Source: a virus (Duplodnaviria > Heunggongvirae > Uroviricota > Caudoviricetes). From it: a DNA stretch of 28,826 nt. The notes under the pieces were generated by a model, which saw only the letters and a list, made by a program, of their open reading frames with translations, made no database searches and was not told where the DNA came from. The DNA lies in the IMG/VR virus record IMGVR_UViG_2541047699_000005. One strand, 5' to 3'. This document shows positions 22,060 through 23,872 of this stretch, one piece after another; position 1 is the stretch's first letter, and every line of letters starts with the position of its first letter. The position numbers and the translations under genes are program-made.

Positions 22060-22275
22060 TTACTCTCCCCGTGCAGCCTTACGACGGTCCTCTCTGATTT
22101 TGAAATACAGGTTAGTCAGATATGTCAGGAAGCCCAGAACCAGACTCCCCAGTACACCAATCGCAGCCCACTGTGACGGACTGACCTGATCAAGCCACTG
22201 TAAAAACCAGTAGCCAGCACTGCCTGCGGAGGTGCCGTAGGCAATGCCCGTTGAAATTTTATCCATGGATTTCAT
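22060..22275 (-). CDS. S: Class II holin (phage 21 S-type pinholin)
   Basis: In-frame Met gives [71 protein letters not shown] (71 aa), with two transmembrane domains and the dual-start Met-Lys-Ser-Met motif; GGAGGTG SD upstream. Confidence 0.85.
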
Positions 22276-22412: not shown

Positions 22413-22440
22413 GCCCGTATCCATATGCGGGCTTTTTTTT
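22413..22440 (+). terminator. Plus-strand intrinsic terminator (hairpin plus T8)
   Basis: gcccgtat-ccat-atgcgggc stem-loop (one G-U pair) followed by eight T; the orientation is opposite to all neighbouring genes. Confidence 0.5.
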
Positions 22441-22446
22441 GCATGT

Positions 22447-22476
22447 AAAAAGGCCCCAACACATGTGCGTGGGGCC
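22447..22476 (-). terminator. Minus-strand terminator-like hairpin back-to-back with the plus-strand one
   Basis: Minus RNA ggcccca-(11-nt loop)-uggggcc followed by UUUUU, in the leader between the tRNA operon and the holin gene. Confidence 0.4.
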
Positions 22477-22676
22477 TGAGAGTATACATGGTTTCAGTCA
22501 ACTGCATGGTGCCGGGTGCCTCCCGGTGAATTCAGTACCAGCACCTGAATCCGCGATTATCCCATATACCTACTCGCTGATTGCCCCTCCGCACAGGGGG
22601 ATTCACCATGCCAGTTTCTTTTAACAAACTCCCCGCAAAACAGACAACTGTCAACCGTCTGAATTGTGAGACATTT

Positions 22677-22701
22677 AAAAAAAAGGCCCGCAAAAGCGAG
22701 C
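22677..22701 (-). terminator. Intrinsic terminator ending the tRNA operon
   Basis: Minus RNA ggcucgc-UUUU-gcgggcc followed by seven or eight U, starting 15 nt after the CCA end of tRNA-Arg(UCU). Confidence 0.55.
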
Positions 22702-22715
22702 CGGGAAAAATAAGT

Positions 22716-22792
22716 CTGGCGCGTTGTACTGGATTCGAACCAGTGACCGATTGCTTAGAAGGCAATTGCTCTGTCCGGTTGAGCTAACAACG
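22716..22792 (-). tRNA. tRNA-Arg (anticodon UCU), CCA encoded
   Basis: Hand-folded cloverleaf: acceptor GCGTTGT/ACAACGC, D-stem GCTC/GAGC, anticodon stem ATTGC/GCAAT with loop CTTCTAA, T-loop TTCGAAT, discriminator G, CCA. Confidence 0.85.
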
Positions 22793-22805
22793 CAGGGTAC
22801 AGATA

Positions 22806-22882
22806 ATGGACCGCCATCGAGGACTCGAACCCCGCGCAACCAGCTTCGAAGGCTGGTGCTCTATCCTGATGAGCTAATGGCG
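22806..22882 (-). tRNA. tRNA-Arg (anticodon UCG), CCA encoded
   Basis: Hand-folded cloverleaf: acceptor CCGCCAT/ATGGCGG, D-stem GCTC/GAGC, anticodon stem CCAGC/GCTGG with loop CTTCGAA, T-loop TTCGAGT, CCA. Confidence 0.8.
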
Positions 22883-22889
22883 GTATGTG

Positions 22890-22965
22890 ATGGTGGCCCT
22901 TGCTGGATTTGAACCAGCGACCTGGCGATTATGAGTCGCTCGCTCTCACCTCTGAGCTAAAGGGC
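22890..22965 (-). tRNA. tRNA-Ile2 (anticodon CAU, lysidine-type, reads AUA)
   Basis: Cloverleaf with anticodon loop CTCATAA; overall sequence GGCCCTTTAGCTCAGAGGTGAGAGCGAGCGACTCATAATCGCC...CCA is very close to E. coli tRNA-Ile2 (ileX) as recalled, so it is read as Ile rather than Met. Confidence 0.8.
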
Positions 22966-22974
22966 CGGGCGCAG

Positions 22975-23003
22975 GATAATAACGTTACGAAATCAATGTT
23001 GCA
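22975..23003 (-). promoter_or_regulatory. Candidate sigma-70 promoter of the tRNA operon
   Basis: On the minus strand: -35 TTGCAA, 17-bp spacer, -10 TATTAT, GC-rich discriminator (CCTGCGCCC); the predicted start is 2-3 nt before the mature tRNA-Ile 5' end. Confidence 0.45.
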
Positions 23004-23084
23004 AGCATTCAAAAATCACCTGGTTAAAAATCACCCTTAGCTCCTCCACCAGCGCATTCACCATGTCTATCCGAGATAAGTGGC

Positions 23085-23123
23085 ACAAAAAAACCCGCTT
23101 GTGGGCGGGTTTTGTTTGCTTTT
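23085..23123. terminator. Bidirectional intrinsic terminator downstream of the Q-like gene (candidate tR')
   Basis: Hairpin acccgc-ttgtgg-gcgggt flanked by A7 on one side and a T-rich tract on the other, about 70-90 bp downstream of the Q stop. Confidence 0.5.
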
Positions 23124-23164
23124 GCCATCACGTACAAAATCGGCAAAATATCAGATTTGCATGA

Positions 23165-23193
23165 AATATATGCCTTTCAATCTACTTTTGCAA
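23165..23193 (-). promoter_or_regulatory. Candidate late promoter (pR'-like) overlapping the end of the Q-like gene
   Basis: On the minus strand: -35 TTGCAA, 17-bp spacer, -10 TATATT. The predicted transcript would run about 70-75 nt to the terminator at 23085-23110, giving a short 6S-like RNA. Confidence 0.4.
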
Positions 23194-23872
23194 CACTTTG
23201 CTTTGAAAATGCCGCCTTTTGTTTTGAACGTGTTCTCATTACAAACAATAAAGCCTCACTATCCAGTCGTTGAAAAATGTGTTTCATTGCAACCCAGTGA
23301 CGAGTAAATGTTTTGGACCAGTTTTTAGTTGTCACTCCCGCCAGTAATGCCAGCTCCTGGTATTCATAACCTTCCCCACCAAAAAGTTCTGCTTTTACTG
23401 CCTGCGCCGCCAGCCAGATTAATTTTTTCAGGCGTTCCTGCGTTTTCCCTGCAATTTTTCTGGTACCGGATTGAGTATTAAATTCATTCCACGCCCACTG
23501 TGTTATCGCGATCTGATATTCCCAACAAATACTCCCGCCGTAACACCACAACAACCAGGCTTTATGATGCTCTTCAAGAGACAGCAAAGCCCGCCGCCAT
23601 GATGATGTCGAAAACTCAACCGGGCTGACCAGGGCAATTGATGAGCCATTCGCCAGTGATTGTTTTCCCGGGATTGGTGGATTATCCCGCGTTATCATTT
23701 TTCCAGTCACTTCATCGCGGTACCGGATTTTTTTTCGCCTGTAACGCCCTGTATCGAACATGGCATTCTCCTGCCAGGCTTCAAGCTGACCTTTTGTTGC
23801 CCCACTCAAATCAGCGGTGGCGATAATGAGCTGCTCACGCACAAACTGTAAATACTGGTTATTCATGCGCAC
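23177..23872 (-). CDS. Putative late-gene antiterminator Q-like protein
   Basis: 231-aa ORF immediately upstream of the candidate late promoter/terminator and lysis genes, in the position of quuQ in Qin-like prophages. Assignment is by position; I do not recognise the sequence as lambda Q. Confidence 0.55.
   Translation of the reverse strand: MRMNNQYLQFVREQLIIATADLSGATKGQLEAWQENAMFDTGRYRRKKIRYRDEVTGKMITRDNPPIPGKQSLANGSSIALVSPVEFSTSSWRRALLSLEEHHKAWLLWCYGGSICWEYQIAITQWAWNEFNTQSGTRKIAGKTQERLKKLIWLAAQAVKAELFGGEGYEYQELALLAGVTTKNWSKTFTRHWVAMKHIFQRLDSEALLFVMRTRSKQKAAFSKQSVAKVD

Follow-up and report, generated by a model that had tools for sequence, protein, structure and literature searches.

The segment between positions 23193 and 23087 on the minus strand of the sequence analysed here (28,826 nt, virus record IMGVR_UViG_2541047699_000005; this whole stretch is called the window) is, judged by sequence comparison, very probably the late regulatory module of a phage-82-type lambdoid E. 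coli prophage, consisting of the late promoter pR′, the Q-utilisation site, and the terminator tR′. The element in the window is an instance of the already known and well-studied phage 82 late promoter. A promoter of the σ70 type with a 17-bp spacer and an AAA start overlaps the 3′ end of a gene of the PF06323 family, an intrinsic terminator follows shortly downstream, and late genes lie beyond it on the same strand. The sequence anatomy of the module, its homology to phage 82, and its conservation across the family are direct observations.

The genes in this part of the window lie on the minus strand. Gene Q (23177..23866) extends from an ATG at 23866 to a TGA stop codon at 23179-23177 and its 229-aa product is a late-gene antiterminator, covered from end to end by Pfam PF06323 (E = 8e-91). 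An ungapped alignment over 229 aa gives 76% identity with phage 82 Q (X92588); identity with the Q of phage 434 (OL657226), annotated as ‘Q82-like’, is 73%. PF06323 is the Q82 family, and two further Q families, PF06530 (Q21) and PF03589 (Q-lambda), are unrelated to it and to each other (PMC9388147). Upstream of Q we find rusA and a DUF968/HNH gene. Downstream and on the same strand follow a class II holin gene, a YdfR/DUF1327 gene, a lysozyme gene, and the virion genes (Pfam, together with the PGAP annotation of an identical sequence), and this gene order around Q is the standard lambdoid order. The holin (phage 21 S-type; 22060..22275, minus strand; Pfam PF04971 and the same PGAP annotation) is the first lysis gene of the late operon. 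At least 80% of the Q-to-tRNA segment of the window is carried by 589 of 20,395 records.

The −35 hexamer TTGCAA (23188..23193, minus strand) is encoded by the Q codons (V)AK. It is followed by the 17-bp spacer AAGTAGATTGAAAGGCA (23171..23187), within which the Q stop codon falls, and by the −10 hexamer TATATT (23165..23170). Both hexamers were also recovered by the consensus scan, and the pair that the sequence-only reading had described as straddling the Q stop on the gene strand is read directly at 23193-23165. Beyond TATATT the gene strand continues with TCATGC, AAATCTGATATTTTGCCGATTTTGTACGTGATGGCAAAAGCAAAC, and then AAAACCCGCCCACAAGCGGGTTTTTTTGTG. We predict that transcription starts at A23158, the head of an AAA run (23156..23158) located 7 nt past the −10 hexamer. 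This placement of +1 is drawn from (i) the 7-nt distance, (ii) the ‘WT initial AAA sequence’ of phage 82 pR′ (PMC5001585), and (iii) the 5′ end of the Rfam isrJ model discussed below, which lies 3 nt upstream of the equivalent AAA, an offset that is itself a point against the reading. The Q-binding element (QBE) sits between −35 and −10 (PMC4914094), and by analogy the 17-bp spacer is the presumed QBE position in the window. At 4 of its 17 positions this spacer differs from that of prophages carrying a Q gene identical to phage 82 Q, and its recognition by the Q protein of the window is assumed from co-inheritance.

Taken by itself, the hexamer pair is no better than chance. Promoter-like sites are frequent in this AT-rich region: the consensus scan returned 7 sites in 3 kb, compared to 3.2 ± 2.1 expected, and TTGCAA-N17-TATATT with at most two mismatches has 4 matches, compared to 2.5 expected. 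These counts would suit a reading in which the hexamers are a chance match, the hairpin merely ends the early-right (nin-Q) operon, and the real late promoter lies elsewhere. We consider such a coincidence extremely improbable. The full composite TTGCAA-N17-TATATT-N6-AAATCTGATATTTTGCC, derived from a phage-82-identical prophage, has a single match in the window with 0 mismatches, where 0 are expected; across genera, the Q protein varies more than the non-coding sequence from −10 to +14; and in prophage Gifsy-1 the module persists although it is detached from Q, and it still yields IsrJ RNA. On the plus strand, TTGCAACACTTTGC at 23188-23201 reads TTGC-N6-TTGC, the CII-binding consensus, and overlaps the pR′ −35 hexamer; the phage 434 record annotates the equivalent site as a CII site and paQ −35. 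A paQ-like, CII-dependent antisense promoter was considered for the window and rejected: the upstream, second TTGC is not kept outside E. coli-type loci, and no convincing −10 hexamer follows.

The GenBank entry X92588 ends at the Q stop codon, although TTGCAA is already present in the last codons of phage 82 Q. We therefore infer the sequence of phage 82 pR′ from proxies, namely two E. coli prophages in which the nucleotide sequence of Q is 100% identical to that of phage 82 Q. A full-text literature search with sequence strings for the literal phage 82 pR′ returned nothing relevant. In both prophages, Q is followed by TTGCAA-AACTGGATTAAAAAGCA-TATATT-TCATAT-AAATCTGATATTTTGCCAATGTTGTACGCACTGGCAG and then by a terminator. 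From −35 to +17, the window is identical to this proxy except in the spacer and in the 6 nt before the start. Common to both are the −35 hexamer in the last Q codons, the Q stop in the 17-bp spacer, the Q family, the AAA start, the element TGaTATTTT, GCC at +15-17, U at +25, and a terminator that gives a leader of ~70-80 nt. Apart from the spacer, the window and the proxy differ in the sequence of the terminator stem and at several positions from +18 to +40, where hairpin 1 of the leader is kept. They differ further in what follows: in the window, tRNA genes and an STnc100 element separate tR′ from the lysis genes; in the 82-type prophages, the holin gene comes almost straight after the terminator.

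The published description of the phage 82 pR′ pause element allows a comparison position by position. This element is −10-like, is closer to TATAAT than its lambda counterpart, and includes an extended −10; insertions at +9 shift all pause determinants; a ‘discriminator’ GCC occupies +15-17 and is followed by an AT-rich stretch from +18 to +25; and the polymerase pauses at +25/+26, where +25 is naturally a U and where G is missing both from the position after the pause and from pause position −10 (PMC5001585). With +1 at A23158, the transcribed sequence of the window begins AAATCTGATATTTTGCCGATTTTGT, and every published position fits this sequence and the proxy prophage sequence too. The window contains an extended −10-like element at about +6 to +14, composed of TG at +6/+7 (23153-23152) and TATTTT at +9 to +14 (23150-23145), followed by GCC at +15-17 (23144-23142), with C at +16, and by AT-rich GATTTTGT at +18-25. 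The pyrimidine at +25 is a T (23134), and +26 is an A. Based on this match, a σ70-dependent pause element is predicted at 23134..23153 on the minus strand, with the pause at U+25. The comparison with the phage 82 late promoter region that the sequence-only reading had proposed thus comes out, for the proxy prophages, in favour of its pR′/tR′ assignment: the composite matches with 0 mismatches and the published positions fit, a Q82-family gene lies upstream, and the terminator and the lysis and virion genes lie downstream.

The intrinsic terminator tR′ (23087..23113, minus strand) was identified by scanning, folding, and family comparison. Read directly on the gene strand, its hairpin is AAAACCCGC-CCACAA-GCGGGTTTT at 23113-23090; the scan listed it on the plus strand. 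The stem, CCCGC/GCGGG extended by A4/U4, encloses a loop of 6 nt and has a dG of −11.5 kcal/mol. The flanking A- and T-tracts reported earlier correspond to a tract of four A on the 5′ side and a run of seven T (U7) at 23093-23087. With +1 at A23158, the terminated RNA is predicted to be ~72 nt long, in line with the earlier estimate of about 75 nt between promoter and terminator. The terminator had also been called bidirectional. A plus-strand tail (GTTTGCTTTT) does exist, but the A-tract is specific to the window copy; other family members are without an upstream A-tract, and no plus-strand gene converges there, so that a role in both directions finds no backing.

The 75-nt leader on the gene strand folds into two hairpins (−24.3 kcal/mol, z = −4.1), and none of 200 shuffled sequences folds as well. 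In the minimum-free-energy structure, hairpin 1 spans +11 to +39 (UUUUGCC...GGCAAAA; 23120..23148, minus strand). Pairing was measured by folding each sequence singly and, for class 1, by an alignment free of gaps. Among 10 loci of the same class as the window, 80.6% of the cells are paired, compared to 31-57% in slid controls; four pairs change on both sides, with a covariation score reached by 3 of 500 shuffles. Loci of a second sequence class (GUCG..CGAC) carry a hairpin at the place of hairpin 1 in a slightly shifted register, and hairpin 1 is absent from phage 434 and from loci L008 and L102. RNAalifold on a MAFFT alignment of 15 leaders yielded no structure; hairpin arms and differing terminators are misaligned in it. 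The 5′ arm of hairpin 1 overlaps the pause element, which accounts, at the level of DNA, for some of the conservation of the hairpin. A literature search on the function of hairpin 1 found nothing published. Inside the leader, the plus strand holds an antisense promoter-like sequence, TTGCCA-16-CAAAAT (23122-23149), which probably arises because the hairpin 1 sequence is palindromic.

To compare the module across the Q82 family, we gathered 13 loci from reference genomes (Q identity 60-92%) and 80 near-identical viral contigs, and added phage records from Klebsiella, Enterobacter, Salmonella, and E. coli as well as Gifsy-1. The compared set comprises 20 non-redundant loci with 60-100% Q identity from Escherichia, Citrobacter, Klebsiella, Raoultella, Enterobacter, Buttiauxella, and Salmonella. 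The layout is kept in all 20. The −35 hexamer is TTGCAA in 19 loci, and the Q stop codon, read from the spacers, occupies spacer positions 9-11 in every locus. TATATT is the −10 hexamer in 14/20; the remainder keep A2 and T6, with the exception of L005 (TATATC). TG at +6/+7 is found in 19 of the 20 loci, and A+10 and T+14, which correspond to the −11A and −7T that are critical in a −10 element, are invariant throughout. The non-coding sequence from −10 to +14 is nearly invariant across genera, and the sequence further downstream diverges freely. By strict criteria, 17 loci have a terminator (hairpin and U-tract) in the corresponding position, with a stem sequence that varies among loci. The predicted terminated RNAs are 52-81 nt long in the 20 loci, with one of ~117 nt. 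The regulatory module always travels with Q, and the cargo downstream of it varies: tRNAs in the window, isrI elsewhere, and the holin gene directly in 82-type prophages.

The sequence-only reading had regarded both the shortness of the RNA and the position of the promoter inside the end of Q as unusual. Because the 20 loci share the layout and the short RNA, these are family traits: the −35 hexamer lies in the last Q codons of each locus examined, and the short leader is common to all of them, including the 82-identical prophages and phage 434. Eroded copies of the module were also encountered (L003, L004, L005, and L015, from E. coli ECMA0423 and Shigella flexneri SFBU1023). The pause hexamer is TACTTT in all four, the −10 hexamer is TATATC in L005 and L015, and L003 and L004 have a 1-nt deletion before the start together with a terminator-stem mismatch. 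This pattern suggests decay in cryptic prophages.

Two further late promoter regions place the module in context. In phage 434 (OL657226), the −35 hexamer likewise lies in the end of Q, a pause-like element TGgTATGTT is present, and a terminator is annotated; this copy differs from the window in that it is without hairpin 1 and without GCC at +15-17, and its leader is only ~54 nt long. The pR′-qut-tR′ region of lambda with its 6S RNA shares the logic of the window module, in which a constitutive promoter stands immediately behind Q, a σ70-dependent promoter-proximal pause gives Q its loading point, and an intrinsic terminator then makes a short RNA; lambda Q belongs to an unrelated family (PF03589), and the two regions are without sequence similarity. 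The terminated RNA from lambda pR′ is 194 nt long. The lambda pause lies at +16/+17, with the −10-like element at about +1 to +6 (PMC5001585).

A second promoter-like site, TTGCAA-17-TATTAT (22976..23004, minus strand), was found by consensus match further downstream. Its hexamers are of equal quality (9/12) and it lies nearer to the late genes, so one could take it for the Q-responsive late promoter and the 23193-23165 site for a secondary one. This is very unlikely. The 23004-22976 site is without a downstream −10-like pause element, and its predicted start lies ~3 nt before the first tRNA (22966). It is part of a tRNA segment ~93% identical to that of Stx2 phages with other Q types, a module that stands also behind unrelated Q types in Stx phages, and it is missing from 82-type prophages without tRNAs; on both counts, the site is not specific to Q82. 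The three tRNA genes (22717..22966, minus strand; ARAGORN, Rfam, and PGAP annotation of an identical sequence) have a CAT anticodon (tRNA-Ile according to PGAP), Arg-TCG, and Arg-TCT. They are downstream cargo of the late transcript, and given the 23004-22976 site in the shared module, pR′ may not be their sole entry point. Of the earlier proposal that pR′ is the entry point for tRNAs, lysis genes, and virion genes, the part concerning the lysis and virion genes stands, as these lie downstream on the same strand; for the tRNAs it is weakened by their own promoter-like site.

Further terminators follow on the minus strand. An intrinsic terminator-like site after the tRNAs, a 7-pair stem followed by TTTTTTTT, was detected by the scan at 22677..22702. 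Between the tRNAs and the holin gene lies an STnc100 sRNA element with its own terminator (22441..22640; full-length match to Rfam RF02076, 140 bits compared to a gathering score of 47). In total, at least three terminators are located between pR′ and the lysis genes. Between tR′ and the tRNAs, the minus strand carries a 15-bp direct duplication, GGTGATTTTTAACCA|GGTGATTTTTGAA (23008-23035), which is present as a single copy in many otherwise near-identical viral contigs. On the plus strand, a terminator-like hairpin GCCCGTATCCATATGCGGGC followed by T8 (22413-22432) adjoins the STnc100 terminator in back-to-back orientation, and the sequence upstream of the hairpin shows no apparent gene on that strand.

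The common tRNA module suggested a homology between the window leader and StxS, which we rejected. StxS is, as in the window, a short tR′-terminated transcript from an antiterminated late promoter, and it lies upstream of the same ileZ-argN-argO type of tRNA module. Its primary transcript of 258 nt is processed by RNase E to 74 nt (PMC7547250). StxS is associated with a Q933-type Q and a different pR′, the window with a Q of the Q82 family and a predicted RNA of ~72 nt, and Rfam and BLAST searches found no sequence similarity between StxS and the window leader.

From phage 82 biochemistry (PMC5001585, PMC4914094), we infer how pausing, Q loading, and antitermination would proceed on the window copy. 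RNA polymerase carrying σ70 would start constitutively at about A23158 from TTGCAA-17-TATATT. σ70 would be retained on the polymerase and re-bind the extended −10-like sequence TGaTATTTT at +6 to +14, and the complex would scrunch and pause at U+25/+26. Without Q, transcription would resume and terminate at the 23113-23087 hairpin and U7, releasing the ~72-nt RNA. Once early transcription has made Q, the protein would bind DNA between −35 and −10 and join the paused complex with the help of NusA, and the Q-modified polymerase would become resistant to termination. On its way to the holin, endolysin, and virion genes, it would then read through tR′, the post-tRNA terminator (22702-22685), and the STnc100 terminator.

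Comparison with Rfam connects the leader to a known Salmonella RNA. In the window, isrJ (RF01393) and isrK give sub-threshold matches at 23161-23088; the isrJ match (23161-23089) scores 24.5 bits and thereby stays below the gathering score of 37. Above the gathering score, at 38-70 bits, isrJ is found in three of the compared loci (L009, L010, and L011, from Citrobacter, Raoultella, and Klebsiella), where the matches begin 19 nt after the stop of a Q82-family gene; the window leader has this position and the promoter that goes with it. The isrJ gene of Gifsy-1 scores 100 bits and is preceded by TTGCAAAACTGGATTAAAACGGCTATATT, which includes a fossil of the last five Q82-type codons (IAKLD-stop) directly after the anrP stop. 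It shares with the window the −35 and −10 hexamers and +1 to +11, and its spacer is of the 82 type. Diverged members of the 82-type leader RNA thus turn out to be Rfam isrJ, and IsrJ to be the leader RNA of an 82-type late promoter. Northern blots and primer extension have shown IsrJ to be a 74-nt Salmonella RNA, and a plasmid copy driven by the isrJ promoter itself also yielded it (PMC2330248). Its detection supports, in vivo, the predicted initiation and termination at an 82-type promoter of this sequence class.

The Gifsy-1 locus differs from the window in its arrangement. Up to residue 218, Gifsy-1 antQ and the window Q share 66% identity. Behind antQ comes a different promoter, which makes IsrK (a c4 a1b1-type target RNA), then C4 RNA and the antirepressor gene, so that a c4/isrK-anrP module separates the late promoter from antQ, whereas the promoter of the window overlaps Q. 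In the Gifsy-1 record (NC_010392, 1360-2310), a P1-like c4/a1b1 (IsrK)-orf45-antirepressor module is seen between antQ and an intact 82-type late promoter, which is the isrJ gene. The isrJ promoter may be the natural loading site of Gifsy-1 AntQ. IsrJ and the window leader have in common the architecture of 5′ tail, hairpin, and terminator and a similar length (~74 vs ~72 nt); in IsrJ, hairpin 1 is of the other sequence class and the terminator stem has a different sequence.

This kinship raises the question of whether the ~72-nt transcript acts also, or mainly, as an Hfq-binding sRNA that regulates host genes of the lysogen in trans, in the manner of Gifsy-1 IsrJ or StxS. The free 5′ end AAAUCUGAUAU would then be the pairing region, and such an activity would add to the role of pR′ without replacing it. 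The diverged homologues are members of Rfam isrJ, a family titled Hfq-binding RNA; IsrJ affects Salmonella invasion (PMC2330248), and StxS demonstrates that by-products of pR′ can be regulators (PMC7547250). The leader also combines a conserved single-stranded 5′ stretch, a conserved hairpin, and a U-tract terminator. Set against this are the low isrJ score of the window copy and the fact that the conserved 5′ stretch is already explained by its role in the pause element at the DNA level. On balance, we regard a trans-acting function as rather unlikely, at perhaps the weight of a minority possibility. Equally tentative is the view that the leader is a diverged IsrJ-type regulatory RNA, constitutive in lysogens, in which hairpin 1 has a function of its own; that function would be, e.g., RNA stability, binding of Hfq or a target, or tuning of termination or of Q82 loading. 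A literature search retrieved no paper in which the phage-82-type late-promoter leader is recognised as the Rfam isrJ family, and this link may not have been stated before.

For the Q82 family, the comparison supplies material on a protein whose mechanism was listed in 2022 as still to be determined (PMC9388147). A search of the PDB (2026 copy) with the window Q returned no solved structure with detectable sequence similarity, which leaves Q82 as the sole family of the three without a relative among solved structures (PMC9388147). The assignment of pR′ fixes the start of the late operon for a prophage type present in hundreds of E. coli genomes, a result of mainly annotation value, and the natural spacer variants catalogued here could help to define the DNA-binding specificity of Q82.
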